DNA from: a virus
Length of the DNA stretch: 64,000 nt
IMG/VR virus record: IMGVR_UViG_3300043411_001575
Location: 32,001-96,000 of that record
Reading direction: 5' to 3' (one strand)
Both the position numbers and the translations under genes were made by a program. Shown here piece by piece: positions 12,861 to 32,764 of this stretch; position 1 is the stretch's first letter; each line of letters opens with the position of its first letter. Below the pieces are notes generated by a model. That model was not told the origin of the DNA and did not search any database. It saw nothing but the letters and a program-made list of their open reading frames with translations.

Positions 12861-12892
12861 TCAATTAATTTTGTTATTTTACCGTTAAACCG

Positions 12893-12965
12893 TTGAGCGA
12901 CTAGGAATCGAACCTAGAGTCTCTTGAATCAAAATCAAGCGTGTTGCCTGTTACACTATCGCACA
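12893..12965 (-). tRNA. tRNA-Gln(UUG)
   Basis: Cloverleaf; anticodon arm CTTGA-TT TTG AT-TCAAG; GGTTCGATTCC. Confidence 0.9.
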
Positions 12966-13009
12966 ATAAATATTTTATTTTCAGAAAACAAATATACAAA
13001 AAAAATTAG

Positions 13010-13081
13010 TGTGAGTAACAGGAATTGAACCTGTGCGGACGGATTTTCAGTCCGTTGCTCTACCTGCTGAGCTATACCCAC
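13010..13081 (-). tRNA. tRNA-Phe(GAA)
   Basis: ACGGA-CT GAA AA-TCCGT; TAGCTCAG D arm. Confidence 0.93.
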
Positions 13082-13120
13082 ATAAGGCTTTTCAGCCTAT
13101 TGTTTGTTGTTAAATTATTA

Positions 13121-13864
13121 TTACCAATTACCCTTACCTGAATGATAATCATTTAATCTGTTTTTTCTTTTTCCGTTACCTATATTCTTTCCGCAATAAG
13201 TAGGAGTCTGAGCATGGCAGTTAGGGCATATGTTTCTTATATTAGAAACTTTGTCATTTTCAGAATCTCCATCTATGTGGTCTAATTGTAATGGTATTTT
13301 ATTTCCCATCCAATCATGTAAACCGCAAACCATGCACTTGTGACCATTTTTATCAATTAGATATAATTTAAGTATTTTATTCTTACTCGTTCCTGATATG
13401 TTACTTTTAAATGTTCCATCTTCTATTTTTTTGAAATTATATAGTTTCCTGTGATAATAACTACATTCACGAGAGCAAAATTTAGCCACATGGTTTTTTA
13501 ATTTTTTTCCACATATTATACAATTTAATTTTTCCCTCCACATTGGATGACTATTTCCTGACATCAAATATTTATTATTACATTCTCTTGAACACGATTT
13601 AAAATCTTTGTTTTTAGAACCAATAGCCTTCTCGTACTCTTTTCCACAATGACATATACAAATTACTCTTTCATACTTTCTTTTATTAATATTTGAATTA
13701 AAATGCTCTATACTTAAATTAAATTTATCTAACAGTTTTTTAATTTTTTTCATGTTAGCTCCGTTAATACTTAATTTTAAAGCTCTACATAAATCACTTT
13801 TTGAATTTGAATTAATTAATATTTTTTCAAATTCTTCTTTTGTTATACTTTTAAAGTCTAGCAT
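13121..13864 (-). CDS. HNH endonuclease with Zn-ribbon repeats
   Basis: LQLDHIDGD..N..N...CPNCH. Confidence 0.9.
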   Translation of the reverse strand: MLDFKSITKEEFEKILINSNSKSDLCRALKLSINGANMKKIKKLLDKFNLSIEHFNSNINKRKYERVICICHCGKEYEKAIGSKNKDFKSCSRECNNKYLMSGNSHPMWREKLNCIICGKKLKNHVAKFCSRECSYYHRKLYNFKKIEDGTFKSNISGTSKNKILKLYLIDKNGHKCMVCGLHDWMGNKIPLQLDHIDGDSENDKVSNIRNICPNCHAQTPTYCGKNIGNGKRKNRLNDYHSGKGNW

Positions 13865-13930
13865 TTGGATGTCGATTTAATGTAAAGTTACAAATAAAAT
13901 TAAATAAAACAAACGTCATCTTATACTAAG

Positions 13931-14002
13931 TCGAAAGTATCGGACTTGAACCGCTCCTGATTACCCCAAATAACCTATGCTACCAATTACAACATACTCT
14001 CG
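13931..14002 (-). tRNA. tRNA-Pro(UGG)
   Basis: GGTTA-TT TGG GG-TAATC; C1-G72, A73. Confidence 0.85.
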
Positions 14003-14041
14003 ATATTATTAAATAAAATTAAAGAACGAATTTTTGAACAT

Positions 14042-14069
14042 AAAAAAACCCTGATGATTAGTCAGGGTC
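14042..14069 (-). terminator. attenuator terminator of Pro/Phe/Gln tRNA operon
   Basis: Minus strand ACCCTGA-loop-TCAGGGT followed by T run. Confidence 0.85.
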
Positions 14070-14097
14070 TCTTATTGTTTGTTTGTGATATATTTTT

Positions 14098-14190
14098 TCA
14101 CCCACACGGACAATACGCTCCTGACAACTGCAATCTAAACTGCGGTTGTTGAGGAAAAAATTGTTGAGTGTATGTGTTTGTTATTTTCAT
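14098..14190 (-). CDS. leader peptide MKITNTYTQQFFPQQPQFRLQLSGAYCPCG
   Basis: 30-codon ORF between TACTTTG promoter (~14195) and terminator; Q/F/P run matches downstream tRNAs. Confidence 0.85.
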   Translation of the reverse strand: MKITNTYTQQFFPQQPQFRLQLSGAYCPCG

Positions 14191-14270
14191 GATGCAAAGT
14201 AACGAAATGTTTTTTAATCTACCAAATTTATTTTGAATTATTTTTAAAAATATTTTATTAACTTCGTGAA

Positions 14271-14768
14271 ATGATAGTAATGAAAGGTGTTTGCGAAGTT
14301 TGTAATGATGGAAAAGAAAAGCAATTAGCTAAGAAAAGACCTCCTTTGTGTGGTTATCATTACTCAATTGAACAGCGAAAAAAATCTGCTGAGAAAAACA
14401 AAGACAAGCCAAAGAAAGTTCAAAAGCAATTAAAACGTACTCCATTGTCTTATAAAAGAAAAGCTACAGGAGAGCTTGAACTTATGAAGAGTATTTGGGA
14501 TAACATGGAAGAACATAAATCTTTCATTAGCGGAAATCCAATTTATGAATTCAATGTAAGTTGCATGGCACATGTATTAGCAAAAGCAAAAAATAAGTAT
14601 CCTAAATTTAAATTGAATCCTGATAATATAAAATTACTCACATACGAAGAACACTTCAAATGGGATAATGCTCCACGCTCTGAGTTAATAAAACTTCCTG
14701 AGTGGGACAAAATGTTTAAGTTAGAAGAAGAACTAAAACAAGAATATAAATTATTGTTTGGATTATAA
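14271..14768 (+). CDS. HNH-like nuclease domain protein
   Basis: N-terminal CxxC/CxxH; AHVLAK...NPDNI.LL...EH pattern. Confidence 0.55.
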   Translation: MIVMKGVCEVCNDGKEKQLAKKRPPLCGYHYSIEQRKKSAEKNKDKPKKVQKQLKRTPLSYKRKATGELELMKSIWDNMEEHKSFISGNPIYEFNVSCMAHVLAKAKNKYPKFKLNPDNIKLLTYEEHFKWDNAPRSELIKLPEWDKMFKLEEELKQEYKLLFGL

Positions 14769-14769
14769 A

Positions 14770-15264
14770 TTAATGCTTATTGTTATGCTTTTCCCGATGA
14801 TGCTTTCTACACAACCAATTTACTGTTAAAGGCTCATTGTAATCTTCATGATGCGCAAATGTATTTATGCTATCACATCCTTCAGTCTCGCATATTCCAC
14901 GAATTAATTTACCTGTCTTAACTGCGTAATATACCTTTTTTCTTGCTCTTATCTTTTCAGGATACCTTTCGCATTGGATTTTTTTATAGTGGTAATTGTT
15001 ATTTGATATGCCATCCTTCCAATTAGGATTATTTTCACCATCAAATTTATATTTTTCATGTATTATTTTAGCACTTTTTTTACCGTTCTCTATTCTAAGC
15101 TTACTAATTTGTGCAGTTGTTCTTTTAATATTATTCCTCATCATTATCCTTTCAATACCCCAATGAGTCATATTGAATTTTTCAGCGAGTACTGAATTAG
15201 ATAAATGTAAATTATTTGAAATAAATTCAAGCATTTCATTTTTTTGTTCCTTTGTTTTTCTCAT
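14770..15264 (-). CDS. HNH-like endonuclease (start at 15264; the longer ORF call runs through tRNAs)
   Basis: NPNWKDG, C..C..AHHEDY...WLCRKHH; own TATATTTG promoter near 15290. Confidence 0.8.
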   Translation of the reverse strand: MRKTKEQKNEMLEFISNNLHLSNSVLAEKFNMTHWGIERIMMRNNIKRTTAQISKLRIENGKKSAKIIHEKYKFDGENNPNWKDGISNNNYHYKKIQCERYPEKIRARKKVYYAVKTGKLIRGICETEGCDSINTFAHHEDYNEPLTVNWLCRKHHREKHNNKH

Positions 15265-15306
15265 AATACAAATATACATAAATCTTAGTAGTTGTACAAT
15301 AAAAAG

Positions 15307-15387
15307 TATCCCTAGCAGAACTCGAATCTGCAAGTCAAAGACAATGGTTTTTAAGACCATCCTGTTTACCAATTTCAGCATAGGGAT
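15307..15387 (-). tRNA. tRNA-Leu(UAA)
   Basis: ATGGT-CT TAA AA-ACCAT; variable arm. Confidence 0.9.
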
Positions 15388-15393
15388 ATTTTG

Positions 15394-15475
15394 TACAGAT
15401 AGAGGTATTCGAAACCTCATGCATTTCTGCGTATGATTCTAAATCATGTGCGTCTTCCAATTCCGCCATATCTGC
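15394..15475 (-). tRNA. tRNA-Leu(UAG)
   Basis: ATGA-TT TAG AA-TCAT; TGGCGGAATTGG D arm; variable arm. Confidence 0.9.
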
Positions 15476-15491
15476 ATTTGTTTTTTTATTG

Positions 15492-15564
15492 TTGGAACAC
15501 TAGGAGTCGAACCTAGATTAGCGGTTTTACAGACCGAATTCTTACCCTTAGAAATGATGCTCCA
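15492..15564 (-). tRNA. tRNA-Tyr(GUA), short variable loop
   Basis: CGGT-CT GTA AA-ACCG; CTAGGTTCGACTCCTAG T arm. Confidence 0.8.
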
Positions 15565-15570
15565 ATTTTG

Positions 15571-15656
15571 CGGAAACAGCAGGACTTCAACCTGCACGGG
15601 CTTTTATACCCCTAGCGTTTTTCAAGAACGTGTACCTCTGTCAATTGGGTGCTTCC
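15571..15656 (-). tRNA. tRNA-Ser(UGA)
   Basis: CGTT-CT TGA AA-AACG; long variable arm; G73. Confidence 0.8.
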
Positions 15657-15685
15657 AAATTATTTTATTTCAATGAACTGTTTTG

Positions 15686-15769
15686 CGGAGAGCAGTGGTC
15701 GTGACCCACACTCGTTTAACCGAGCCGACAACTTAGCAGGTTGCGCCTACCCTGATAGGTTTACTCTCC
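15686..15769 (-). tRNA. tRNA-Ser(GCU)
   Basis: CAAC-CT GCT AA-GTTG; GGAGAG acceptor; long variable arm. Confidence 0.85.
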
Positions 15770-15774
15770 TTTTG

Positions 15775-15847
15775 GGTAATATATCGGGATTGAACCGATG
15801 ACCTCTCGAATCACAATCGAGCGTTCTACCACTGAACTAATATCACC
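15775..15847 (-). tRNA. tRNA-His(GUG)
   Basis: CTCGA-TT GTG AT-TCGAG; G-1:C73. Confidence 0.92.
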
Positions 15848-15881
15848 ATGTATCTTTTTAAAGAACGAATTAATATAAAAC

Positions 15882-15912
15882 AAAAAACCCCAAACTTTTC
15901 AGTTCAGGGTTC
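15882..15912 (-). terminator. attenuator terminator of His/Ser/Tyr/Leu tRNA operon
   Basis: Minus strand AACCCTGAAC-loop-GTTTGGGGTT plus T run. Confidence 0.85.
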
Positions 15913-15933
15913 TTATCATGTAAACAAATATGT

Positions 15934-16011
15934 TTAACTACAATAGAGATTTTCCTGAACCGATTGCTTCGGATACAGCGACAAATAACTATGTAATGAT
16001 GTATTTTTCAT
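15934..16011 (-). CDS. leader peptide MKNTSLHSYLSLYPKQSVQENLYCS
   Basis: 25-codon ORF after TAATTTG promoter (~16020); S/L/H/Y run matches downstream tRNAs. Confidence 0.85.
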   Translation of the reverse strand: MKNTSLHSYLSLYPKQSVQENLYCS

Positions 16012-16099
16012 AATGGATGCAAATTAAAGGATTATTTATTTATCCGCAAAATTTATTTTTAATAAAAATCATATTGAATTGAAAATGAGTGAAATAAAA

Positions 16100-16321
16100 T
16101 TATTCGATGCAAATTAATTCTACTTTTTTGACTTTATCCCAAATCTTACCGAATGCAGTAGGATTCAACCCAACTTTTGCAGTCCAATTTGTAGGGGCAA
16201 TCCATTTCTGTCCATCGTGTAAATTACCCACAGAAGCTACAGAAGTACCTCCTCCTGATTTTTTCTTCCAATAAATACGGTACAAACCACATCTTAATTC
16301 TTTAACGTCTTCTTTTTTCAT
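16100..16321 (-). CDS. hypothetical protein
   Basis: ORF in minus operon. Confidence 0.65.
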   Translation of the reverse strand: MKKEDVKELRCGLYRIYWKKKSGGGTSVASVGNLHDGQKWIAPTNWTAKVGLNPTAFGKIWDKVKKVELICIE

Positions 16322-16331
16322 CTTATTTTTT

Positions 16332-16652
16332 TTAATTTAAAATACGTCTAACTTCAGGAAAACATTTGTCTAATTTATTCTCCCATTCTACTGAGTAACG
16401 TGAATAATAGTCCATGTTTCTATTTACTCTTTCAATAGCCTGCTCTCTTGTGAAATTGTTACATATCATACAGAATTCAATGTGAGTTTCATGAGCATCT
16501 TTAGCTAATTTAAATTTGTCTTTCATTAAAACATCTTTGAAAAACCAATCCATAAACCAATCATATACGATTGGTAATTCTTTTGTTGGATTAGCATTCC
16601 ATTCTTTTAATTCCTTTAATGATTTTATTCTTTTTTTCATTTTATAATACAT
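16332..16652 (-). CDS. hypothetical protein
   Basis: ORF in minus operon. Confidence 0.65.
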   Translation of the reverse strand: MYYKMKKRIKSLKELKEWNANPTKELPIVYDWFMDWFFKDVLMKDKFKLAKDAHETHIEFCMICNNFTREQAIERVNRNMDYYSRYSVEWENKLDKCFPEVRRILN

Positions 16653-17235
16653 TTAATTCTGAATATTCTGTACCCCAATTTTCAATAGCAGCTTCATTAT
16701 ATGCTTTAGCAGCATCTTCTTCACTTAAAAAATAACCTAAATGCTTTTTCTTGTAGTCTAATTTTATTGACGCAGACCACTTGTTAGCGAACTTATTCCA
16801 ACTGACTCCTTTATAAATACTGCTTGGAACATTACCATTAGCGGTTCTTTGTTTTTTCTCTTTATAGTGAGCTTTTTGATGGCTTATTAATTCAAGATTA
16901 TCTCTTCTTAAATTTAATGGATTCCTGTCTTTATAATGAATTACCGTTTTACCTTCTGCTTCAAGTAATAATTTAGCAAAAGGAGCTACAATTCTTTTTC
17001 CTTCTTTTGAAATCCAAAGTGCCATTACTGCTTGTCTCTGTTCATCAAACCAAATATCTTGTTGCCTGAGAACTTCATAATCAAAATCATCAAACTGAAT
17101 ATTTTTTCCGCAAGTGGTTTTTACCCATCTGAATTGGTCTGCAAAAATACGCATTGCCTTTACCACATCTTCAGATGTAAAACTATTATTCTCTTTCCCA
17201 AATAAATCTTTTATAACCTGTATCTCTGTTTTCAT
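16642..17235 (-). CDS. HNH-AP2 domain protein
   Basis: Degenerate HNH (HYKDRNPLNLRRDNL) plus AP2 (SIYKGVSW...W.A.I...HLGYF..EEDAAKAYN). Confidence 0.88.
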   Translation of the reverse strand: MKTEIQVIKDLFGKENNSFTSEDVVKAMRIFADQFRWVKTTCGKNIQFDDFDYEVLRQQDIWFDEQRQAVMALWISKEGKRIVAPFAKLLLEAEGKTVIHYKDRNPLNLRRDNLELISHQKAHYKEKKQRTANGNVPSSIYKGVSWNKFANKWSASIKLDYKKKHLGYFLSEEDAAKAYNEAAIENWGTEYSELNVL

Positions 17236-17579
17236 CTAGCATAAATATATTTACCGCCATCCCAAAATCTTTCTGATTTATTTTTAATACCTAACCACTC
17301 CCTAAATGAAAGACCACTATCATCACTAAGGAATTCACGGTATCTTATTTGTGAACGAGTTAGTTTTTTAATTGGTGGCTTATGATTAAATGTTTCCAAG
17401 TATTGTACTTCCCATGTTGGATGGCAAGGCAAAGGCTCTGCGGTTACATTATCATAAAAATTAACTCCGATATAGTTTCCCATATCTTTTGTTATTACCC
17501 CTTTTTTACCATTAACAATTACCTCTCTGTGTATTTCAGCAGGAACATTATATCTGTTTTTTATGTATTCGAATTCCAC
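17232..17579 (-). CDS. hypothetical phage protein
   Basis: ORF; YNVPA..., CHPTW. Confidence 0.7.
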   Translation of the reverse strand: MEFEYIKNRYNVPAEIHREVIVNGKKGVITKDMGNYIGVNFYDNVTAEPLPCHPTWEVQYLETFNHKPPIKKLTRSQIRYREFLSDDSGLSFREWLGIKNKSERFWDGGKYIYAR

Positions 17580-17582
17580 TTT

Positions 17583-17858
17583 TTATTTCGTTTTAAAATC
17601 TTCGTATTCTCCAATATAACAAACTCCATATTCAAGATAATCACCATCCTTAGTAAATTCTTTTTCCATAAATCTAGCTTCTTTATAGGCACTATCTTCT
17701 GTTTCAAATAACTTACTCTTACCAAAGTACTTTTTAAGTTCCTTTTTACGCTTTACACTTCCTTCAGGAAAGAAATAAATATTATCTATGCATTGCGTAT
17801 AAATAACTCTATATCCATCAGGAAACTTAGCTATGTATATCCCATTGTCTGCACTCAT
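17583..17858 (-). CDS. hypothetical protein
   Basis: ORF in operon. Confidence 0.7.
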   Translation of the reverse strand: MSADNGIYIAKFPDGYRVIYTQCIDNIYFFPEGSVKRKKELKKYFGKSKLFETEDSAYKEARFMEKEFTKDGDYLEYGVCYIGEYEDFKTK

Positions 17859-18139
17859 TAATTTGTATTTTTATAAAACCAATATAAATCTCCATCAGGC
17901 TCTAAAATCCATTCGCCTAAATAATCTTTTGCGTTATCACAGGTTAAGGTTATTTTACTCATACTATCAATCTTCAAAGTTTTAGTATCCATAATAGTAG
18001 CAGCTCTTATTGTTAACTGCCCATGAATTTCCTTTACAACCACATCAGTACTTCCGATGTGGCTCTTTAGGTCTTTTGGTACACAAATGATAACAGTATT
18101 GTGCCTGTATGTAGTATCTACAATTTTAACTTGAAACAT
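17858..18139 (-). CDS. hypothetical protein
   Basis: ORF in operon. Confidence 0.7.
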   Translation of the reverse strand: MFQVKIVDTTYRHNTVIICVPKDLKSHIGSTDVVVKEIHGQLTIRAATIMDTKTLKIDSMSKITLTCDNAKDYLGEWILEPDGDLYWFYKNTN

Positions 18140-18141
18140 AA

Positions 18142-19194
18142 TTACTCTTCGTTATTGTAAAACACTTTGTAAAACTTCATTCCTTTTTCTTCATCAAAAC
18201 CTTTTTGAACTAGGTCATGTCTTCCATGAATGTAAAGATGAAAGTTCTTGTCTAATTTGATGATTCCTTTAAAATATTTCTCTTGTTTCTTTACCGCTGT
18301 TGCTGAAATTTCGAAGTCTTCAACATCATTTTTTACGTGATTAACTTCTTCACTAATTGTTCGGTATTCTTTGAAGCTATCAATTAATTCAGGTTGAGAT
18401 AAAACTTCTGCTTGAAACTCTTCTATGTTAAATCTATCCTTATCTTTAAAGTAGTTTAGTGACCTGTCTTTAATCAACATTTGGTCAACAGGCTCAACAT
18501 TGTTTTCTTGTGTTAAAACCTCTTCACAGAAATTATTAATTGTAGCTAACATGTTGTTTGTATGAAAGAATCTATCTTCACAAAGTTTTACCCCTAAGAA
18601 ATCTTCTGTCCAATATAAAGCTGCCTGAGCTATTTTATGACTATTATCAATGATGCTGATTTTATAACCATCTTCATTGTTAACATTGAATATCAAACAT
18701 CCCTTGTCAAGTTTATTGATGTTTATTCCATTCTCTGCTTCTACCTCAAAATTATCAAGGTTTTGATTTAATTTTAAGTATGTTTCTTTATTCTCCGACT
18801 TGAAGATTCCAATAGCATCACAAAGTTCTCCATCTACAACACAATCTCTGATATATGTCATAAAGAAATCACCACCTTTAATTTTAGGATGATTACTTTG
18901 GTCATAAAGACGTTGAGCAATCTTCTTAGAGTTTTCAAACATAGTTGATGGGTTATCAAACACATCTCGTACATACGATTGAACATCATAAATTTTAATC
19001 GCATCAGGCTTTCTGAATTGGAAATACACATCAGATTTAAAGGTATTCAGGAAGAAATGGTAAATAGTTTCCTTAACCCATTCATCGCCTATTTTATTAG
19101 GCATGTTTGCGAAGACAATCTCTTCTCCTAATCCTTTGTTACCAACGTAGTGTATTGCGATTTCGTTGGATTCACTTCTTTTAAATTCAATCAT
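18142..19194 (-). CDS. nucleoid-associated protein, YejK/NdpA family (Bacteroidota type)
   Basis: IHYVGNK, LY.QSNHPKIKGG, GIFKSENK, GININKLDKGCLIFN, YW.EDFL, IKLDKNFHLYIHG. Confidence 0.85.
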   Translation of the reverse strand: MIEFKRSESNEIAIHYVGNKGLGEEIVFANMPNKIGDEWVKETIYHFFLNTFKSDVYFQFRKPDAIKIYDVQSYVRDVFDNPSTMFENSKKIAQRLYDQSNHPKIKGGDFFMTYIRDCVVDGELCDAIGIFKSENKETYLKLNQNLDNFEVEAENGININKLDKGCLIFNVNNEDGYKISIIDNSHKIAQAALYWTEDFLGVKLCEDRFFHTNNMLATINNFCEEVLTQENNVEPVDQMLIKDRSLNYFKDKDRFNIEEFQAEVLSQPELIDSFKEYRTISEEVNHVKNDVEDFEISATAVKKQEKYFKGIIKLDKNFHLYIHGRHDLVQKGFDEEKGMKFYKVFYNNEE

Positions 19195-19214
19195 TTTTTT
19201 CTGTTTTTTAATTA

Positions 19215-19433
19215 TTATTTATCTTCTACTTTTTTAATTATTTCACACCATTCAGCTATGAAATCAGTTTCTTCACCTGATTCTAAGCGAACATAAACAC
19301 GATTATTATCCAAGAAGCCATACCCAATAATTTCTCCTTTAGATGAAGTTCCAAATGCTTTTTGCTCGACAATATCACCTACTCTTAAACCATAGTAGCG
19401 ACTTCTGTTTTCGTTATCAAATTCTTTTTGCAT
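19215..19433 (-). CDS. hypothetical protein (SH3-like)
   Basis: ORF; LRVGDIV. Confidence 0.65.
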   Translation of the reverse strand: MQKEFDNENRSRYYGLRVGDIVEQKAFGTSSKGEIIGYGFLDNNRVYVRLESGEETDFIAEWCEIIKKVEDK

Positions 19434-19434
19434 T

Positions 19435-20301: not shown

Positions 20302-20325
20302 TTTGTTTTCTTTTAATTTAAATTT

Positions 20326-20724: not shown

Positions 20725-20726
20725 AA

Positions 20727-21092: not shown

Positions 21093-21094
21093 GA

Positions 21095-21646: not shown

Positions 21647-21660
21647 TCTTTTTTTTTTAA

Positions 21661-21867: not shown

Positions 21868-21883
21868 TTTTAGTTTTTATAGT

Positions 21884-22081: not shown

Positions 22082-22091
22082 TTTTATTTTT

Positions 22092-22870: not shown

Positions 22871-22872
22871 AA

Positions 22873-23361: not shown

Positions 23362-23378
23362 AATTATTTTTAGTTTAA

Positions 23379-23876: not shown

Positions 23877-23882
23877 AACTAA

Positions 23883-24266: not shown

Positions 24267-24281
24267 AATTGTTTTTAGTAT

Positions 24282-24338
24282 TTGACCATTGCAAATATAA
24301 TAACATTTTTGATATTACAAGCAAAAAAGATATTAACA
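24282..24338 (-). promoter_or_regulatory. promoter of the 24.3-16.1 kb minus operon
   Basis: Minus strand TGTTAATA...TATATTTGCAATGGTCAAAT, near-identical to the + strand promoter at 44963-45020. Confidence 0.75.
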
Positions 24339-24349
24339 ATTTTATAGAG

Positions 24350-24423
24350 TGACTATACAAGGACTCCAACCTTGAATCTTCGAGTTCGTAGCCCGATATG
24401 TTATGCGATTACACTATATAGTC
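24350..24423 (-). tRNA. tRNA-Arg(ACG)
   Basis: TCGGG-CT ACG AA-CTCGA; GACTATA/TATAGTC acceptor. Confidence 0.85.
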
Positions 24424-25487
24424 ATTTGTTTTTTATATCTCCTTACCCAAGAAGTAGCTCCACTCTTAGTTAGTCCAAATAAATTCATTATTTTTTTAAC
24501 TATTTTTTTATCATTTATATTAATGTTGTTTTCAGTTAAAATTTGAATTCTATTCTTATTGAACTTAATTGATTCATCTTTCATATTGTCAAAGTATCCT
24601 GATTTAGAACCATATTTCCTAGCCCTTGACAATCCATTTCTATCAGTCTTTTTAAAACACTTTGATTCATAAAAGTCAGGCATAAATTTAGACATCCATC
24701 CTTTAACTTTTTGTGGTATTAAGTCTGTTATTTCACTAACTCTCTTTGCCCATCCAAACTTAGAAAAATCAATATCTGAATTACTTATTATTTCTATTCT
24801 TTTAGAATGTATATTTTTAAAATTAAACTCATTAATACAATCAGTATATTCTTTACGTGATTTACTTTTAAATACTTCTTTTTTCTGTTTAATATAAAAA
24901 GAATAGTCAATATTACCCATATAATATTCATTCTTTAATCCTGAAATTAAATCACTTACAAATGATTTTTTATATATATTTGAATAGTGTATATCAAATA
25001 ATTTCCATCCTAATTCCTCTATTTCTTCTTTTCTTTTTTGATAATATTCTTTTAGAGAACCATCTCTATTATAATGTTGATTTCCATTTACCTCTATACC
25101 TATTTTTTTATCAGGGAATGCAATATCAATACTAAAAAACCTATTATCTAATGGTTTATACTCTTCTACAAAACTAATATCATTTTCAATAAATAACTTT
25201 TTTAAAATTTCACATGGTACAGATTTTAATTTTTCACTTCGTTTCCAAACGCATTTTTCAGGATTTTCTCGTAGATATAAAGACATTTTCAAACTTAAAT
25301 GCTTTCTTAATTCATCACTATGTTTTATTTTATGTTTTATTTTTTTGATGAAACCTTCTCTTTCAGCTCTATTTAATACATTTTTACCAATACCAAATTT
25401 TTTTGTTATTTTAGTCCAAAGTAATCCATTCTCATGTTCTGATTTAATTAAATCCCAATCTATTTTTGTTAAATCTAATCTCTTCAT
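24414..25487 (-). CDS. DUF559/Vsr-like PD-(D/E)XK endonuclease; stop codon lies inside tRNA-Arg 5' end
   Basis: IDIAFPDKKIGIEVNGNQHY...LGWKL. Confidence 0.8.
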   Translation of the reverse strand: MKRLDLTKIDWDLIKSEHENGLLWTKITKKFGIGKNVLNRAEREGFIKKIKHKIKHSDELRKHLSLKMSLYLRENPEKCVWKRSEKLKSVPCEILKKLFIENDISFVEEYKPLDNRFFSIDIAFPDKKIGIEVNGNQHYNRDGSLKEYYQKRKEEIEELGWKLFDIHYSNIYKKSFVSDLISGLKNEYYMGNIDYSFYIKQKKEVFKSKSRKEYTDCINEFNFKNIHSKRIEIISNSDIDFSKFGWAKRVSEITDLIPQKVKGWMSKFMPDFYESKCFKKTDRNGLSRARKYGSKSGYFDNMKDESIKFNKNRIQILTENNININDKKIVKKIMNLFGLTKSGATSWVRRYKKQMTI

Positions 25488-25527
25488 AATATTTATTTTT
25501 ATACAAATATATGAATATTATTTTTAG

Positions 25528-25617
25528 AATCCCCGATAGGAGTCGAACCTACATTATTCTTTTAAAAAGAAAGCAAAATTAGAAGTTTTGTGCATTATCC
25601 ATTTATGCTACGGGGAC
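25528..25617 (-). tRNA. tRNA-Arg(UCU) with extended variable arm
   Basis: CAAAA-CT TCT AA-TTTTG; extra TTCTTT/AAAGAA stem. Confidence 0.85.
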
Positions 25618-25691
25618 ATATATTTATCTACCTCTTCGCAATCTGCGAGAAGTAAAAAAAGTTTTTATGTGCCTTGTAGTTAACATTGAAT

Positions 25692-26093
25692 TTAATTTTT
25701 GATATGTTTATTAAAGGATAACATTAATCCATTTATATTTTCTTTTCCAACAGGATTAGCACTTTGAATATTATACAATGGTAATTTTAATTTATTATCC
25801 AAACAATATTCTACTAACCATTTAGCGCAATCATATCCTGTTTTTTCTTCTTTCTTTAATAATCTTGATTTTCTTTTACTCATTCCTTTTGCCCTAGCTT
25901 CTAAAGCAACTTCCATTCCTAAATCATGGTCAAAACAAATAGCTTCAGGTAATCCATTTTGGTTAATCCAATCAACAAATTCATTATAAGATTTAACCCA
26001 AATACAATCAAAAGGTTTTTCAATCGGACTATATGAAAGCCAATCTCCTTCAAAAGGATTTCTCAAATCATCTAACCATAAAAGTTTTTTCAT
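25692..26093 (-). CDS. cyclic-phosphate-processing receiver-like domain protein
   Basis: LWLDDLRNP, FDHDLG, TGYDCAKWLVE, SANPVG. Confidence 0.8.
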   Translation of the reverse strand: MKKLLWLDDLRNPFEGDWLSYSPIEKPFDCIWVKSYNEFVDWINQNGLPEAICFDHDLGMEVALEARAKGMSKRKSRLLKKEEKTGYDCAKWLVEYCLDNKLKLPLYNIQSANPVGKENINGLMLSFNKHIKN

Positions 26094-26107
26094 TTTAAAA
26101 ATATTTG

Positions 26108-26180
26108 TGGCTCAGGGGGAACTCGAATCCCCAACCCTCGCATTAAAAGTGCGATGCTCTACCGATTAAGCTACTGAACC
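26108..26180 (-). tRNA. tRNA-Lys(UUU)
   Basis: TCGCA-CT TTT AA-TGCGA. Confidence 0.92.
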
Positions 26181-26270
26181 ATATTAATAATTACTTACTC
26201 TTTCGCTTTCGCAAAAAAGAAGATAAAGATTTTATGTTTCTCGTAACTAACATTGTTTTATTTTTTTATG

Positions 26271-26342
26271 TACCCGTTGATAGAATCGAACTACCGACAT
26301 AATCCATGTAAGGGATTCGCTCTACCCCTGAGCTAAACGGGC
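26271..26342 (-). tRNA. tRNA-Val(UAC)
   Basis: AATCC-CT TAC AT-GGATT. Confidence 0.92.
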
Positions 26343-26352
26343 ATTTATTTTG

Positions 26353-26426
26353 TGGAGCGTACAGGATTCAAACCTGTGTAATCTTTCGTGCAAGGAAAGT
26401 GCATAGTCGGACTCTGCCAACACCCC
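26353..26426 (-). tRNA. tRNA-Ala(UGC)
   Basis: CTTTC-CT TGC AC-GAAAG; G3-U70. Confidence 0.9.
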
Positions 26427-26432
26427 ATTTTG

Positions 26433-26505
26433 TGTTCCCTACTTGAATCGAACAAGTGACCTCTCGGTTATGAGCCGAATGCTTCTACCCCTGAGCTAAA
26501 GGAAC
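26433..26505 (-). tRNA. tRNA CAU, probably Ile2 (lysidine)
   Basis: TCGG-CT CAT AA-CCGA; third CAU tRNA; the operon's leader contains an ATA codon. Confidence 0.8.
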
Positions 26506-26514
26506 TAATTAATA

Positions 26515-26760
26515 TTATTCTCTCAATGCATCTCTTATAACTTTATTCTTCTGTGTACGTTTATATTTGTTATATCCGCTACATCCAAAACAATTACAAG
26601 GTCTGCTTGTTGTTTTCAAAAAAGTATAACCATTTCCTGTTAATGCTTTCTTAATTTCTTTTTCGTCATTCCAAGATGGATGAGCGAACCAATTTTTTAC
26701 TCTTCTTTTAAATTTTGTTTCTTGTTTATGCCTATTGTAGGCACGACTTAAATTTTTCAT
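26515..26760 (-). CDS. small basic protein with CxCxxC
   Basis: PCNCFGC; within tRNA operon. Confidence 0.65.
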   Translation of the reverse strand: MKNLSRAYNRHKQETKFKRRVKNWFAHPSWNDEKEIKKALTGNGYTFLKTTSRPCNCFGCSGYNKYKRTQKNKVIRDALRE

Positions 26761-26833
26761 AGCTTCAAGGTTATCACCACTAGCGTAGCTTGGCTAATGG
26801 CTTATAGTTTGAATCTATGTTCTTTTATTGTTT

Positions 26834-27355
26834 TCATTTTTTAGCCTCGATTGATTTTTTAATAATAAAACTTATAGTTCCTTTGCTTTTAATATTTAGT
26901 TTTTCAGCTATTTGCTTATACGAAAGTCCTTCAATATGTAATTTAATTATCTCTTCATGATTGTGCTTCTTTACAAATGAAGTAGCTCTTAAAGCCATTT
27001 TCATTCTAACATCAGAAGGTTTATCCATATTGTTTTCTGAAGCTGTTCCTATTAAAATATTGTCTTTTGAATTATCTTTTTTATTCCCATTTAAATGCCT
27101 AACATGTACACCTTTTTTAAATATTTCATCTCCATATTTTTGATAAGCTACAAGACGATGTACCGAAACTTGTTTTGAAACAGATTTACCATCTATCAAT
27201 ATTCTTCTTGAAATATAGTAATATTTAGTCGTTGTATTAGTGGATAAATTATGCTTTCTTTTTTTATAAAAAACATTCCCTTCTTCATCAACCTTATATC
27301 CTACTCTAACAGCCTCTAATAAAGCTAATGTAGATATTGATTCTTTTATTTTCAT
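26834..27355 (-). CDS. HNH endonuclease with C-terminal HTH
   Basis: VHRLVAY...VRHLNGNKKDN..DN...GTASEN. Confidence 0.9.
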   Translation of the reverse strand: MKIKESISTLALLEAVRVGYKVDEEGNVFYKKRKHNLSTNTTTKYYYISRRILIDGKSVSKQVSVHRLVAYQKYGDEIFKKGVHVRHLNGNKKDNSKDNILIGTASENNMDKPSDVRMKMALRATSFVKKHNHEEIIKLHIEGLSYKQIAEKLNIKSKGTISFIIKKSIEAKK

Positions 27356-27368
27356 TTTGTTATTTTTG

Positions 27369-27442
27369 AGATAATGACCTGAATCGAACAGGTATTTCAG
27401 GTTTTGCAGACCTGTGCCAAAGCCAATATTAGCTACATTATC
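27369..27442 (-). tRNA. tRNA-Cys(GCA)
   Basis: CAGGT-CT GCA AA-ACCTG; U73. Confidence 0.88.
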
Positions 27443-27451
27443 TTTTTATTG

Positions 27452-27524
27452 AGCGAGTAGAGTGAATCGAACACTCATTTCCTGATTGGAAGTCAGGAGT
27501 AATAACACATTATACTATACTCGC
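27452..27524 (-). tRNA. tRNA-Gly(UCC)
   Basis: CCTGA-CT TCC AA-TCAGG; GCG start; U73. Confidence 0.92.
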
Positions 27525-27528
27525 ATTT

Positions 27529-27693
27529 TTGTTATTGGATTCCGTGAGGACAACGTGTACGCAGGTCGTTACCTTCATTATTCTGTCGTTCACAAATGAG
27601 AATCAAATGTATTTACGGATAATTCTGACTACAAAAATTAATTTGCACAGCTTATCAATGGTTGCGCTTACAGGAGCGGATTACCAATAACAA
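27529..27693 (-). ncRNA. candidate structured RNA of about 165 nt in tRNA operon
   Basis: Closed by TTGTTATTGG/CCAATAACAA stem; non-coding; between tRNA-Glu and tRNA-Gly. Confidence 0.45.
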
Positions 27694-27726
27694 TATTTTT
27701 ATTTTCAAAGAACTTAATTTTGTTAG

Positions 27727-27801
27727 TCACCCGTAGCGTGGTCGAAACGCTTTTTAATGGTTGAAAACCATTTGTCCTAACCTACCGTAGACGAACGGGC
27801 G
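27727..27801 (-). tRNA. tRNA-Glu(UUC)
   Basis: AATGG-TT TTC AA-CCATT; TCGTCTA D arm. Confidence 0.88.
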
Positions 27802-28042
27802 TTTTTGAATACCTCAAATGCCTCGTCCGATTCTGTTTTTTCTAATTTTGTTTTCATAATGTTTTTATTTTTTTAATCCAATTATCAGTGGATGCTGTTT
27901 TAAATTTATTTTCAAATTCAACCTCTTTAATTTCTTTGTGAGGTTTTATTTCTGTGTACTTTAATTCTTCTTTTACTACTCTTCCTTTTCTCTTTTTAAC
28001 TAATGGTTTCTTTTCTTCGCTATGAATGTTTCCTTCGCATTT

Positions 28043-28273
28043 TTATTTTTTAGGAGATAGCCAAACTTTTAACCTATTTAAATACCAATCATCTGATTGT
28101 TTTAAGCTCCTATGAGATTCATGCCTATCAACGTCGTGCATCCATCTTTTAAAGATATTATACTTCGCTACTGGGAACTTTTTTTTAATTGAACTATCAA
28201 ATTCAATTTGAGCCATAATTCCTGTAAGTTTTAAATATTTTTTTCCGTAATCTAAATATTCTTCTTTTGTCAT
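28043..28273 (-). CDS. hypothetical protein
   Basis: ORF with A-rich leader. Confidence 0.6.
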   Translation of the reverse strand: MTKEEYLDYGKKYLKLTGIMAQIEFDSSIKKKFPVAKYNIFKRWMHDVDRHESHRSLKQSDDWYLNRLKVWLSPKK

Positions 28274-28292
28274 TTTTTTTGTTTTAAAATTG

Positions 28293-28490
28293 TTATTGCA
28301 AATATATGTAATTTAAACTAATCCGTACAAAATCCTGCTTGGCATCCGCTGCCTGTTCCAAAGTTAAAATCCTGTGCAACCCTATTTTTTTAAATTCAAA
28401 GTAACTACCTTCTTTTTTCCATTCACATTTTGTAGTGCCACATCTTTGCTTCTGACCTATTCTGCAAAATTCAATTTCATTTAACCCCAT
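28293..28490 (-). CDS. hypothetical protein
   Basis: ORF with A-rich leader. Confidence 0.45.
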   Translation of the reverse strand: MGLNEIEFCRIGQKQRCGTTKCEWKKEGSYFEFKKIGLHRILTLEQAADAKQDFVRISLNYIYLQ

Positions 28491-28691
28491 TGTATTTTTT
28501 TTATTTTAATACCACTGAGCAATGGAGAGCAATTCATTTCATTTATCTTCATTATTTGCAAATAACAAAGGACTACTTTACTCTGCTCTTTACCCACTAC
28601 TCAATATTTTAAGAGTACAATTCAAGCTAACTTCCTACACTGAACACCGCTTCAGCAAGGCTTTGAGCCTATTTTAAATTATACTCTTTTG

Positions 28692-28776
28692 CACAAGCGG
28701 TAGGAGTCGAACCTACACATCCCTTTCGGGCAACAGATTTGGAGTCTATCCATCTCTCCATTGTATTAGCACTTGC
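28692..28776 (-). tRNA. tRNA-Trp(CCA) with long variable arm
   Basis: ATAGA-CT CCA AA-TCTGT; CCC-GAAA-GGG variable arm; G73. Confidence 0.8.
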
Positions 28777-28786
28777 GTTTTTTTTG

Positions 28787-28861
28787 CAGTTATGATGGGA
28801 TTTGAACCCACGACCTCTACCGTGACAGGGTAGCATTCTAACCGAGCTGAACTACATAACT
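28787..28861 (-). tRNA. tRNA-Asp(GUC)
   Basis: CTACC-CT GTC AC-GGTAG; G73. Confidence 0.93.
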
Positions 28862-28886
28862 ATTTTTTATTTTAAAGAACTATTTG

Positions 28887-28958
28887 CGTATAGAAAAGGG
28901 TTCGAACCTCTGTAACCTTCATTAACAGTGAAGTGCTTAGCCACTCAGCCATCTATAC
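28887..28958 (-). tRNA. tRNA-Asn(GUU)
   Basis: CTTCA-CT GTT AA-TGAAG; G73. Confidence 0.92.
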
Positions 28959-28969
28959 TTTTTTTCAAT

Positions 28970-29044
28970 TGGTAGCGGAAGGGTGACTCTAACACCCGAC
29001 CTTTGGGATATGAACCCAACGAGCTAACCCTGCTCTATTCCGCA
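28970..29044 (-). tRNA. initiator tRNA-fMet(CAU)
   Basis: GGG/CCC anticodon stem, unpaired 1-72, encoded CCA. Confidence 0.9.
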
Positions 29045-29614
29045 CTGTTTCATTTCATAATGTAGTTCTCTATGACAATTAGAACAAACAATTATGCATT
29101 TATCAAGTTCTTTTTTTATCTTTTCCCAACACGTTGTAGAATATCTTGATATATTAAAATCTTTTTGTTTTGGTTCAATATGGTGGAAATCAAACGCCCA
29201 TATACATTTATCATATCCACATTTTTCACATTTACCACCTTTATATTTAACTGCTTTTTCTTTAATTTTTTGCCGTGCTGTTTTTACTCTCAAATAATTT
29301 CTTTTTTTTCTTTCTTGTGTACTTAAAATTACTTTTTTTACTATTAATTTTAAATATCTTTTTATTCCTGATACAGAAACATTAAATTTTTCTGCTGTTT
29401 GTTTTAATGTATGTGTTTTATAATACTCTTGAACTTTTAATATTTTTTCATCAGATAGTTTCCTTGTATCCATAAGACCTATATATGATAGATTATGGTT
29501 TTTGCAATGATAACTAATAGTAGATGAAGAGCATTTTAGCTTATTTTTTATTTTGCTATAACTCCACCCTTTCTCTCTTAAATTTAATATTTTATTCTTC
29601 AAACCTTTACCCAT
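29024..29614 (-). CDS. HTH-HNH endonuclease; ends inside tRNA-fMet (start 29614)
   Basis: KGGKCEKCGY...FDFHH...ELDKC..VCSNCHRELH; TATATTTG promoter near 29634. Confidence 0.85.
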   Translation of the reverse strand: MGKGLKNKILNLREKGWSYSKIKNKLKCSSSTISYHCKNHNLSYIGLMDTRKLSDEKILKVQEYYKTHTLKQTAEKFNVSVSGIKRYLKLIVKKVILSTQERKKRNYLRVKTARQKIKEKAVKYKGGKCEKCGYDKCIWAFDFHHIEPKQKDFNISRYSTTCWEKIKKELDKCIIVCSNCHRELHYEMKQCGIEQG

Positions 29615-29661
29615 ATAAAAATTATTAATGATACAAATATAGTTAAAAGTTCGATAAATAG

Positions 29662-29735
29662 TACGCAAAGATGGATTTGAACCACCGACCACATGATTAT
29701 CAGTCATGTATTCTAACCAACTGAACTATTTGCGT
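29662..29735 (-). tRNA. tRNA-Ile(GAU)
   Basis: CATGA-CT GAT AA-TCATG. Confidence 0.93.
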
Positions 29736-29749
29736 ATTTAATATTTAAA

Positions 29750-30053
29750 AATGAGAACGCATGTGTGCTTCTTTGCGTTTTTCTCCAACCGCACAGGAAG
29801 GATTTCCAAAAGTGTTTCTCCACTTCCAAAATAAAATCGTATAGCCTCCAATAAAGAAAAGGTTTTGCGCTTTTCGGTCTTGTACCGCCCTGAAACCTCT
29901 GCTCATCTAAGTTATAGACAATTTTAGTTTCATCCAAATTTGGAGCAGTCCTGTTTTTCAACTACATTCATTTATTTTTTTCATAGAGTTTCTATTTCAT
30001 CAGGTCAAGGCTCGAAGCCCCTTTTTCTCACTGACACTCACAGGTAACTCATT
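29750..30053 (-). ncRNA. candidate structured RNA of about 300 nt in tRNA operon
   Basis: AATGAG/CTCATT closing ends, several short GC-rich hairpins, GC-richer than intergenic background. Confidence 0.4.
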
Positions 30054-30109
30054 CTAATCAATTCAGAAAATTCTGAATGATATTTTAATATTTCAAAGAA
30101 CTAAAAACG

Positions 30110-30183
30110 TCCCGACAGCAAGATTTGAACTTGCGACACTTTGGATATGAACCAAATGCTCTACCGAACTGAGCTATGTCGGA
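30110..30183 (-). tRNA. tRNA-Met(CAU), elongator
   Basis: TTTGG-TT CAT AT-CCAAA. Confidence 0.88.
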
Positions 30184-30246
30184 ATATAAGATTCCTTGCT
30201 GCAAGTCCCCGCACTATATCTGCTTTTATGGGGAGGAATCTTTTTG

Positions 30247-30318
30247 AGCCGTGAGAAGGAATCGAACCCTCGTGCGTAGATTACAAATCTACTGCTTTAC
30301 CAACTAAGCTATTACGGC
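30247..30318 (-). tRNA. tRNA-Thr(UGU)
   Basis: GTAGA-TT TGT AA-TCTAC; GCC start. Confidence 0.92.
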
Positions 30319-31025
30319 TAAAATGACTTACCATCTCTTGCTCTTTGTCTCCTACTATGCCTTCCATTACCTTTATTTAAAGCTTTATAATTCAGTGTTA
30401 GTGAATGGCAATTTGGACAAATTAACTCGACATTATCAGAATTATTATTTTTAGAATTTCCATCTTTATGATTTAGTTCAATTGGAACTTTTTTTGTTGT
30501 TTCATTTATTTCGTTCCAACCACACTTCATACACTTTTCACCATACATCAATATCAATGTTCTCTTTAATACAAAATCACTTAATCCGTCCGTATCATTA
30601 TTATTTATCCTTTCAATTAATTTTTTATTTCTGTAATCAGAGCAGCAAACAATAGAACAATATTTTGTAAAATTAGTTTTACACTCACTCTCACAATTCA
30701 CGCATTTTGGCTTCTCTTTTTTTTTCTTTCTAATTCTAAATTTATTAGAAAATGAAGCTGAACATGAATTATTACAAAATTTAGTTCTTACAACACGTTT
30801 GCCATTAATAAAATCAATATTACTAATAGAATTTCCACAATTTAGACACTCAATAATTTTCCTTTTCAAGTTTTCAGAGTAGTATCCTTCTCTATTCAAA
30901 TGATTTTTTATCAATCCCCATGTAAGATTTAATTCTTCCGATATTTGCATATACGTAAATCCTTCTTTAATCATTTTTTTAGCAAAATTTGATTGCTCAA
31001 TTGTTATTTTTCTATTAACACCCAT
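30318..31025 (-). CDS. HNH endonuclease; TAG overlaps first base of tRNA-Thr
   Basis: IELNHKDGNSKNN...N...CPNCHS; paralog of 13121. Confidence 0.9.
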   Translation of the reverse strand: MGVNRKITIEQSNFAKKMIKEGFTYMQISEELNLTWGLIKNHLNREGYYSENLKRKIIECLNCGNSISNIDFINGKRVVRTKFCNNSCSASFSNKFRIRKKKKEKPKCVNCESECKTNFTKYCSIVCCSDYRNKKLIERINNNDTDGLSDFVLKRTLILMYGEKCMKCGWNEINETTKKVPIELNHKDGNSKNNNSDNVELICPNCHSLTLNYKALNKGNGRHSRRQRARDGKSF

Positions 31026-31132
31026 TTGTTTTTAATAATTAGTTGAAATACAAATTTAACAAAAAAAATAAACAAAGTCAATAATTCAAATAAAACTATT
31101 GGCTCAATACATATTTTCAAAGAACGTAAAAC

Positions 31133-31162
31133 AAAAAGCCCCAACTTTTTAGGTTGAGGCTT
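31133..31162 (-). terminator. attenuator terminator of the 16-tRNA operon
   Basis: Minus strand AAGCCTCAAC-loop-GTTGGGGCTT plus T run. Confidence 0.85.
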
Positions 31163-31186
31163 CTGTGTTTGTATTTTTATGTTTTA

Positions 31187-31297
31187 TTACACTCCCATTG
31201 TCGTAATTAAACAATACACAGATGCCCCTTGAGTACACGCCTTATCGCCCGTATTCTCTGACCACATATTTTCCACTATAATATTTCTGCGTTTCAT
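31187..31297 (-). CDS. leader peptide MKRRNIIVENMWSENTGDKACTQGASVYCLITTMGV
   Basis: 36-codon ORF after TATATTTG promoter (~31340); first 22 codons include all 13 amino acids of the downstream tRNAs. Confidence 0.85.
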   Translation of the reverse strand: MKRRNIIVENMWSENTGDKACTQGASVYCLITTMGV

Positions 31298-31401
31298 TAT
31301 TTTTATTATTTATTACCACACCATGTAGTAATGAGCTGCAAATATACAACTATTGTTTTTTTAAATGCAAATTTATTTTCAATTATTTTTTCATTTTACA
31401 T

Positions 31402-32713: not shown

Positions 32714-32728
32714 GCATCAAATATAAAC

Positions 32729-32760: not shown

Positions 32761-32764
32761 TTTT

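Follow-up and report, generated by a model that had tools for sequence, protein, structure and literature searches.

The DNA analysed here is a window of 64,000 nucleotides (bases 32001–96000) of a 169,658-bp IMG/VR virus record, IMGVR_UViG_3300043411_001575, from an uncultured phage and estimated to be 82% complete. It contains three minus-strand blocks of tRNA genes, and each block is headed by a cassette with a promoter, a short open reading frame (ORF), and a terminator. We consider it likely that all three cassettes control tRNA genes by ribosome-mediated (leader-peptide) attenuation of transcription, of the trp/his/thr type. The case is made in silico and has four components: the parts of the cassettes, the match between leader codons and downstream tRNAs, alternative folds that depend on the position of a stalled ribosome, and leaders in other phages whose codons track their own tRNA genes. 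A first-pass annotation of the same DNA had proposed three tRNA operons gated by attenuators with the layout of trp, his, and pheST; at each of the three sites a short ORF and a terminator are found, and an antiterminator and a stall-dependent fold are predicted.

The window has a G+C content of ~30%, and a block of minus-strand genes spans ~12–33 kb of it. ARAGORN identifies 24 tRNA genes between 12892 and 30318, all on the minus strand and serving all 20 amino acids as had been claimed, and the Rfam searches are in agreement. There are no further tRNA genes in the whole 169,658-bp record, and each tRNA of the record sits downstream of one of the three leaders. The blocks are organized as follows:

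12892–14002, minus strand: tRNA block 1, with Pro, an inserted HNH gene (13121–13864), Phe, and Gln
15306–15846, minus strand: tRNA block 2, with His, Ser-GCT, a Ser-TGA candidate, Tyr, Leu-TAG, and Leu-TAA
24349–30318, minus strand: tRNA block 3, with 16 tRNAs in the order Thr, Met(CAT), Ile, fMet, Asn, Asp, Trp, Glu, Gly, Cys, CAT, Ala, Val, Lys, Arg-TCT, and Arg-ACG

Among the three CAT tRNAs the initiator alone is clear (28970–29044), as its 1:72 pair is mismatched and its anticodon stem contains three G-C pairs; the Met and Ile2 labels on the other two are presumed, with Ile2 assigned to the one after Cys. The earlier count of 25 tRNA genes includes a second serine tRNA in block 2 (Ser-TGA; 15572–15656, minus strand), which is not called by ARAGORN and matches the tRNA-Sec model at 21.9 bits, below the Rfam threshold. 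It has a long variable arm and a Ser-TGA anticodon loop and is probably a real 25th tRNA that departs from the canonical form; it may be non-canonical or decaying. All 20 amino acids are covered even without it. By eye there is an apparent A-C mismatch atop its anticodon stem.

The three blocks share a common head, in which a promoter with a −33 TTTG and a −7 TAnnTTTG-like element is followed by an ORF beginning ATG-AAA, a G+C-rich stem-loop with a U-run, and the sequence GTTCTTT. This is the head that the first-pass annotation described, with ORFs of 25–36 codons, and all three are found as described. The region it delimited ends at 31346 and contains the cassettes, except that the third promoter extends slightly past it, to 31371. 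The components of the cassettes are:

14193–14226, minus strand: promoter P1, a composite motif match with its −7 element ending 5 nt before the ATG
14098–14190, minus strand: leader ORF 1, 30 codons plus stop
14137–14166, minus strand: leader 1 control run, codons 9–18 (QQFFPQQPQF), with Gln, Phe, and Pro codons only
14110–14125, minus strand: leader 1 antiterminator 5′ strand, forming two short helices and including TATTGT in constrained folds
14049–14067, minus strand: leader 1 intrinsic terminator, a stem-loop followed by a 7-U run
14021–14027, minus strand: GTTCTTT box of cassette 1, 18 nt before tRNA-Pro
16018–16050, minus strand: promoter P2, a composite motif match with its −7 element ending 9 nt before the ATG
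15934–16011, minus strand: leader ORF 2, 25 codons plus stop
15973–15999, minus strand: leader 2 control run, codons 5–13 (SLHSYLSLY)
15954–15963, minus strand: leader 2 antiterminator 5′ strand, codons 17–20, complementary to the terminator 5′ arm
15883–15914, minus strand: leader 2 intrinsic terminator, core 15888–15909, with U-run
15860–15866, minus strand: GTTCTTT box of cassette 2, 13 nt before tRNA-His
31337–31371, minus strand: promoter P3, a composite motif match with −33 TTTG, a 21-nt spacer, and an exact −7 TAnnTTTG
31187–31297, minus strand: leader ORF 3, 36 codons plus stop, preceded by an A-rich 5′ untranslated region (UTR) of ~36 nt
31232–31294, minus strand: leader 3 control run, codons 2–22
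31216–31228, minus strand: leader 3 antiterminator 5′ strand, within the ORF, from constrained folds
31134–31164, minus strand: leader 3 intrinsic terminator, core stem 31138–31160, with U-run
31119–31125, minus strand: GTTCTTT box of cassette 3, after terminator 3

When the cassettes are aligned, conservation is seen in the promoter, in the terminator region, and in the box but not in the central part of the ORF, a pattern indicating that they are paralogues. The leader ORFs are intergenic, ORF 3 is overlapped by no long ORF, and TATTGT, which the first-pass annotation noted in all three antiterminator segments, is located near the 3′ end of each ORF. In constrained folds the leader 1 antiterminator strand pairs with 14078–14073 and with the terminator 5′ arm at 14066–14061, and that of leader 3 pairs with the terminator 5′ arm together with the immediately preceding bases. 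The strand embedded in each ORF complements the terminator arm of its own paralogue.

The promoters correspond to the consensus generally known for Bacteroidota sigma-A-type promoters (−33 TTTG and −7 TAnnTTTG, ~19–21 nt apart); P3 is exact, and P1 and P2 have T for A at the second position of the −7 element. The composite motif occurs 23 times in the genome versus 6.1±2.4 times in shuffled sequences, an enrichment that supports use of a Bacteroidota-type host transcription apparatus. Since only 5 nt in cassette 1 and 9 nt in cassette 2 separate the −7 element from the ATG, these two probably express leaderless or nearly leaderless mRNAs; from the same consensus the P2 transcript is predicted to start only a few bases before the ATG. 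P2 is itself preceded, at a distance of 93 nt, by a second promoter-like motif (16110–16143, minus strand), after which comes a 10-codon ORF that overlaps P2, and the leader 3 5′ UTR contains a 3-codon mini-ORF (Met-Val-Trp-stop; 31317–31328, minus strand).

Of 41 terminator-like sites in the genome, the three leader terminators are the only ones with a GTTCTTT box behind them, and the box also follows an attenuator terminator in two related contigs (L078 and L079, described below). An A-rich stretch comes after the box, which is present as well in three inter-tRNA spacers on the minus strand, after tRNA-Met (30095–30101), tRNA-Asn (28874–28880), and tRNA-Glu (27707–27713), and it follows an ordinary terminator in another contig (L133). 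An attenuator-specific role for the box was rejected on these grounds, and it may be an RNA-processing or spacer signal.

The codon content of each leader matches the tRNA block that it precedes. Leader 1 has ten consecutive codons for Gln (four to five), Phe (three), or Pro (two), and block 1 encodes tRNAs for Pro, Phe, and Gln. Leader 2 has nine consecutive Ser, Leu, His, or Tyr codons, all nine of which are read by block 2 tRNAs, and the run covers all six tRNAs of the block with the sub-threshold Ser-TGA included. In leader 3, 20 of the 21 codons from position 2 to 22 belong to the block 3 set and all 13 amino acids of the block are present, among them Trp, Cys, and Met, with Arg and Ile each represented by both of their codon classes. 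The regulatory codons correspond to the regulated genes in these three cassettes and, as set out below, across phages.

When 1780 short ORFs of the whole genome are scored against each tRNA set, leaders 1 and 2 each rank first against the set of their own block and do not stand out against the remaining sets. Leader 3 ranks sixth by the simple run score, and its set covers 69% of background residues. A codon-level null was constructed from windows of the long ORFs of the phage with wobble rules applied. Leader 1 has 9–10 of 10 codons in its set and leader 2 has 9 of 9, counts reached by none of 31,639 and none of 31,761 windows respectively, with a null maximum of 7. Codons 2–21 of leader 3 cover 14 (strict wobble) or 15 (relaxed wobble) of the 15 elongator tRNAs of the block, with a null maximum of 13 in 30,419 windows. 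These values substantiate the earlier claim that each control stretch uses the amino acids of its own operon; the accompanying claim that it avoids those of the others holds for leaders 1 and 2 by their scores against the other sets, but three early codons of leader 2 belong to the block 3 set.

Coverage extends to isoacceptors, with both Ser, Leu, Arg, and Ile codon classes represented, although the joint probability of this given the peptides and phage codon usage is p = 0.077; sensing of tRNA species as distinct from amino acids is therefore not claimed. The control codons are skewed towards those that are rare in the phage, mostly ending in G, and among four-codon boxes 6 of 11 end in G compared to 6% genome-wide (p = 2e-5). 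This may reflect tuning of sensitivity, as tRNAs with U34 read G-ending codons by wobble, or may be a by-product of the need for G+C in the stems.

The leader RNAs are more structured than dinucleotide shuffles (z = −5.2, −3.7, and −3.5 for leaders 1, 2, and 3), and each is predicted to form an upstream hairpin and the terminator when untranslated. To represent a stalled ribosome, the RNA was masked to 12 nt past the A-site codon and refolded, omitting the U-run because it is still within the polymerase at the time of the decision. The predicted terminator probability for leader 1 is 0.87–0.98 for stalls at codons 1–9, 0.52 at codon 10, ≤0.06 at codons 11–17, 0.76 at codon 18, and 0.98 beyond, and the low-terminator positions (codons 11–17) fall within the Gln/Phe/Pro run. 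The minimum-energy fold of leader 2 changes from antiterminator to terminator as the stall moves from codon 12 to codon 13, and that of leader 3 changes in the same direction between codons 19 and 20. In all three leaders the ORF-embedded strand is masked when the ribosome is at the stop codon, and the terminator forms. The test suggested by the first-pass annotation, folding with and without a ribosome footprint, thus gives the predicted outcome with the U-run excluded: an antiterminator for stalls within the control run, and a terminator past it or at the stop.

Leaders of similar construction are present in other viral contigs. About 110 viral loci, many with tRNA arrays, were collected as relatives of two genes of the tRNA region:

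30318–31025, minus strand: HNH homing-endonuclease gene encoding 235 aa (PHROGs HNH endonuclease, E = 7e-16), located between attenuator 3 and tRNA-Thr
25692–26093, minus strand: cREC_REC (cyclic-phosphate-processing receiver) domain gene in block 3 (Pfam, E = 3e-22)

As homing endonucleases are mobile, these loci constitute a loose sample of phage tRNA arrays and not a set of close relatives. They were scanned in two ways, for a terminator with a short ORF, and by scoring every short ORF against the tRNAs downstream with a strand-mirrored null. Leaders built in the same way occur in at least eight other contigs, where the codons differ in step with the tRNA genes that follow. An Ala/Ile/Val run precedes ten Val/Ile/Ala tRNAs (L032), alternating Thr and Gln codons precede Thr, Thr, Thr, one unassigned tRNA, and Gln (L022), and 33 consecutive in-set residues precede a 16-tRNA block (L018). 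In L014 a run of Asn/Glu/Pro/Val/Lys/Ala/Asp is ahead of tRNAs for exactly those amino acids. Five Gln codons are situated ahead of three tRNA-Gln genes in L064 and ahead of two in L078; L064 has another leader, matched to a block for eight amino acids, and a third candidate that is weaker. L079 has 18 consecutive in-set residues, and in L133 16 of 17 residues are in the set. The top real scores are 20.9, 19.7, 17.7, 16.0, 14.8, 13.6, and 13.5, against strand-mirrored null maxima of 12.9 and 7.9 in the two locus sets. A stall-dependent switch of fold is also predicted in L018, L022, L079, and two of the L064 leaders.

The L079 cassette heads a His-Ser-Ser... block, its terminator is similar to that of leader 2, and it has the same GTTCTTT box, and it is probably orthologous to leader 2 by these features. 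Relative to block 2, Arg, Gln, Pro, and Thr are additions to its tRNA block and Tyr is missing, and the control run shows the corresponding changes. The comparison with leaders in other phages that the first-pass annotation called for therefore shows, L079 included, that codon content follows tRNA content. Some of the leader-bearing contigs are G+C-rich, and the device is therefore not confined to phages of Bacteroidota.

Many of the sampled arrays have no leader, and none was found by the ATG and terminator criteria for an upstream Arg/Val/Leu/Thr/Ile block in L014; either the device is not universal among phage tRNA blocks or these criteria miss some examples. Two further short ORFs were discarded as leaders, one (L020) because it is another frame of an HNH gene and one (L027) because it has no terminator. 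An exact-pattern scan of IMG/VR for the terminator plus box gave no match, a BLAST search against GenBank phages matched only tRNA or HNH fragments, and a 497-aa protein of the phage, possibly structural, has only distant partial relatives. For the leaders themselves the nearest relatives are in the L078/L079 lineage.

We infer from these features that the leaders are translated, that read-through responds to their translation, and that a physiological trigger acts as follows. Host RNA polymerase would start at the Bacteroidota-type promoter and a ribosome would translate the short leader ORF. If the control run is decoded rapidly, the ribosome would reach the stop codon and cover the ORF-embedded strand that matches the terminator 5′ arm, the terminator would form, and transcription would end before the tRNAs. 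Should decoding be slow at any control codon, the ribosome would stall within the run and leave this strand free, the antiterminator would form, and transcription would continue into the tRNA block. Because the control codons are those read by the downstream tRNAs, the result would be negative feedback on decoding capacity with one loop per block, in which tRNAs are made until their own codons are again read quickly. The natural input is most likely a functional shortage of tRNAs relative to the demand of an AT-rich phage, which could arise from a mismatch with the host pool, loss of host tRNAs during infection, or a tRNA-cleaving defence; amino-acid starvation would trip the switch too. Feedback on tRNA supply fits the nature of the output genes, and it fits the presence of the cREC_REC gene and of an RtcB-type RNA ligase gene (genome coordinates 25001–26362, plus strand, ~5.6 kb before the start of the window; PHROGs, E = 8e-90), two genes that suggest a capacity for tRNA or RNA repair.

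A broader form of this proposal can be offered only tentatively, and we think it somewhat less likely to be correct than incorrect. It holds that large phages of several host lineages use a general decoding-speed sensor for which the decisive demand is the specific loss of host tRNAs, through an anticodon-nuclease defence or infection-induced decay; the leaders would be operon-specific counter-defence alarms acting together with RtcB and cREC, and the rare G-ending codons would be a tuning to phage-type U34 tRNAs.

Several observations count against attenuation of this type, or against its simplest form. With the U-run included in the folds, the leader 1 terminator wins at every stall position at equilibrium, and the switch must therefore rely on kinetic, co-transcriptional folding, as is likewise assumed for trp attenuation. 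No equilibrium switch is predicted for L032, L014, L078, and L133, which have very stable terminators. The predicted antitermination window of leader 2 includes the three early codons of the block 3 set, and the first-pass suggestion that the phage turns on only the matching operon is slightly too clean. Leader 1 resembles a classical sensitive attenuator, while leader 3 has mostly one codon per tRNA, and classical attenuators with one codon per species have low sensitivity to any one of them. As most tRNAs are sampled once, leader 3 should be triggered when one species is severely depleted or when many are slowed together, in line with a modelling paper (PMC1183508). Attenuator 3 could also be bypassed by a promoter-like motif at 28331 and by a lone −7-like element before the HNH gene that follows the leader. 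Lastly, induction of tRNAs under amino-acid starvation would be futile, and the adaptive input is accordingly an argument rather than a result.

This last point bears on the strongest of the alternatives, in which the same parts are at work but respond adaptively to host amino-acid starvation, and read-through is a signal of starvation or of timing. Stalling reports aminoacyl-tRNA, and starvation must therefore trip the switch, as is established for trp and his attenuation; the isoacceptor coverage described above, which goes beyond amino acids, is suggestive. We nevertheless regard this alternative as unlikely, as a lack of amino acids is not relieved by extra tRNA, the genes switched on encode precisely the tRNAs for the control codons (a hallmark of feedback on whatever is being sensed), and the phage carries genes for tRNA or RNA repair.

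A second alternative is that the terminators are ordinary, non-switching elements or insulators, the ORFs are bystanders, and the tRNAs are expressed from other promoters or through a phage antitermination protein. It draws on the organization of transcription around the blocks, where the unit boundaries are putative and two additional motifs are present:

28297–28331, minus strand: internal promoter-like motif of block 3, upstream of an ORF (28273–28043) and of tRNA-Glu onward
24290–24325, minus strand: promoter-like motif directly after the last block 3 tRNA, starting an 8-kb protein-gene block (24266–16100)

No strong terminator lies between this protein-gene block and cassette 2, and because of this terminators 2 and 1 probably also end upstream transcription. 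Such a role for terminator 2, the promoter-like motifs downstream of attenuator 3, and the GTTCTTT box after an ordinary terminator in L133 are each compatible with insulation. Insulation nevertheless leaves unexplained that each ORF has the codon content of its own block, that the arrangement recurs with different content in at least eight other contigs, and that the switch point coincides with the end of the control run, and we judge it very improbable.

That the codon-tRNA match is a product of chance or local base composition is exceedingly improbable: it could be entertained for leader 3, given the breadth of its set and its modest rank by run score, but the counts of leaders 1 and 2 and the coverage of leader 3 lie above all windows of their nulls, the match is block-specific in a three-by-three cross-comparison, and independent recurrences in other contigs exceed strand-mirrored nulls.

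The proposed leader-peptide attenuation of the tRNA blocks has several counterparts among known systems. The closest are the thrL (Thr, Ile) and ilvGMEDA (Leu, Val, Ile) leaders, which like the cassettes have a short ORF with a run of regulatory codons for more than one amino acid, mutually exclusive antiterminator and terminator hairpins, a choice between them dictated by ribosome position, and termination when the RNA is untranslated. The cassettes differ in that they are phage-borne, their output is tRNA genes and not biosynthetic enzymes, a single leader samples as many as 13 amino acids and 15 tRNA species, most of them just once, they have a Bacteroidota-type promoter, and two of the leaders probably have leaderless mRNAs. 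At gathering thresholds Rfam has no leader-family match in the cassettes, the best sub-threshold scores being Thr_leader (RF00506; 30.4 bits versus 55), Phe_leader (RF01859; 16.7 versus 55), and the trpB motif (22.7–23 versus 59).

In pheM-pheST of E. coli, a leader-peptide attenuator controls a translation component for the amino acid that is sensed, although the output is a synthetase, one amino acid is sensed, and the gene is cellular. The E. coli tRNA-Phe gene pheV has no attenuator-like leader, its upstream region having only a promoter, with no ORF and no terminator. T-boxes are similar to the cassettes in that tRNA status sets termination versus read-through of translation-related genes, but they bind uncharged tRNA directly, without a ribosome or ORF; there is no T-box match in Rfam even at E values up to 5, and no other riboswitch at threshold.

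Phage tRNA arrays are regarded as supply or counter-defence modules, compensating for loss of host tRNAs during infection or permitting escape from anticodon nucleases. The phage described here conforms to this picture, being large and having a full tRNA set among homing endonucleases together with RNA-repair genes, and differs from the arrays studied in having a dedicated, codon-matched sensor ahead of each block. To our knowledge, expression of such arrays has been taken to be constitutive or temporally programmed. The first-pass annotation knew of no description of such control for tRNA genes, and full-text literature searches, with most subscription journals outside their reach, likewise returned no published account of leader-peptide attenuation of tRNA genes. 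According to one report (bioRxiv 10.1101/834739), mycobacterial leaderless short ORFs with polycysteine runs similarly tie downstream expression to the supply of one amino acid through a codon run; they differ in responding to cysteine only and in being cellular and controlling cysteine-related protein genes.

The cassettes appear, as far as sequence analysis can support it, to apply a known mechanism to a class of target that is new and in a regulatory logic that is also new. Leader-peptide attenuation is textbook material for amino-acid biosynthesis and for a few synthetase or resistance genes, and tRNA genes are usually held to be constitutive or controlled by growth rate. If the proposal is correct, phages set their tRNA supply by gauging ribosome speed on the relevant codons, with a separate sensor for each block, which would explain how large phages can carry full tRNA sets without flooding the cell and would open to mechanistic study the old question of why, and at what times, phages need their tRNAs. 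Each leader would be a natural reporter for depletion of a defined subset of tRNAs, making the idea that phage tRNAs answer tRNA-targeting defences directly testable. The paralogues, sharing a scaffold and differing in the control run, would also offer compact, reprogrammable multi-codon sensors for synthetic biology.

The tRNA blocks are interrupted by at least six HNH or nuclease-like ORFs and, in block 3, by the promoter-like motif at 28297–28331, and the three operons of the first-pass annotation stand as three minus-strand blocks whose continuity is broken in this manner. In addition to the 235-aa HNH gene, relatives of which adjoin tRNA genes in many viral contigs, the following are present:

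13121–13864, minus strand: HNH gene in block 1
14770–15264, minus strand: HNH or nuclease-like gene
16642–17235, minus strand: HNH or nuclease-like gene
26834–27355, minus strand: HNH gene in block 3
29024–29614, minus strand: HNH gene in block 3
24414–25487, minus strand: nuclease-like ORF in block 3

The free-standing HNH and nuclease-like genes of the tRNA region are probably homing endonucleases. A zinc-finger-like ORF (14271–14768, plus strand) is located on the opposite strand between blocks 2 and 1. The promoter-like motif at 24290–24325 is near-identical over ~50 nt to a plus-strand promoter at window+97666, ~73 kb away, which suggests duplication of a promoter module. Just upstream of the tRNA region is a permuted (two-piece) transfer-messenger RNA (tmRNA; 32716–33002, minus strand), identified by both ARAGORN and Rfam, with its own promoter of the cassette type and a terminator on either side (33024–33055 and 32735–32756).

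Other recognisable genes in the window encode a homologue of a 37-kDa nucleoid-associated protein (18142–19194, minus strand), a ParB-like protein (41609–42484, plus strand), and a DNA methyltransferase (45818–46882, plus strand). A small helix-turn-helix-like gene has seven paralogous starts that are near-identical over ~150 nt, hairpin included; these are on the plus strand, with those at 48.9–62.8 kb situated near 48920, 52040, 57195, 61905, and 62740 and two others located beyond the window.

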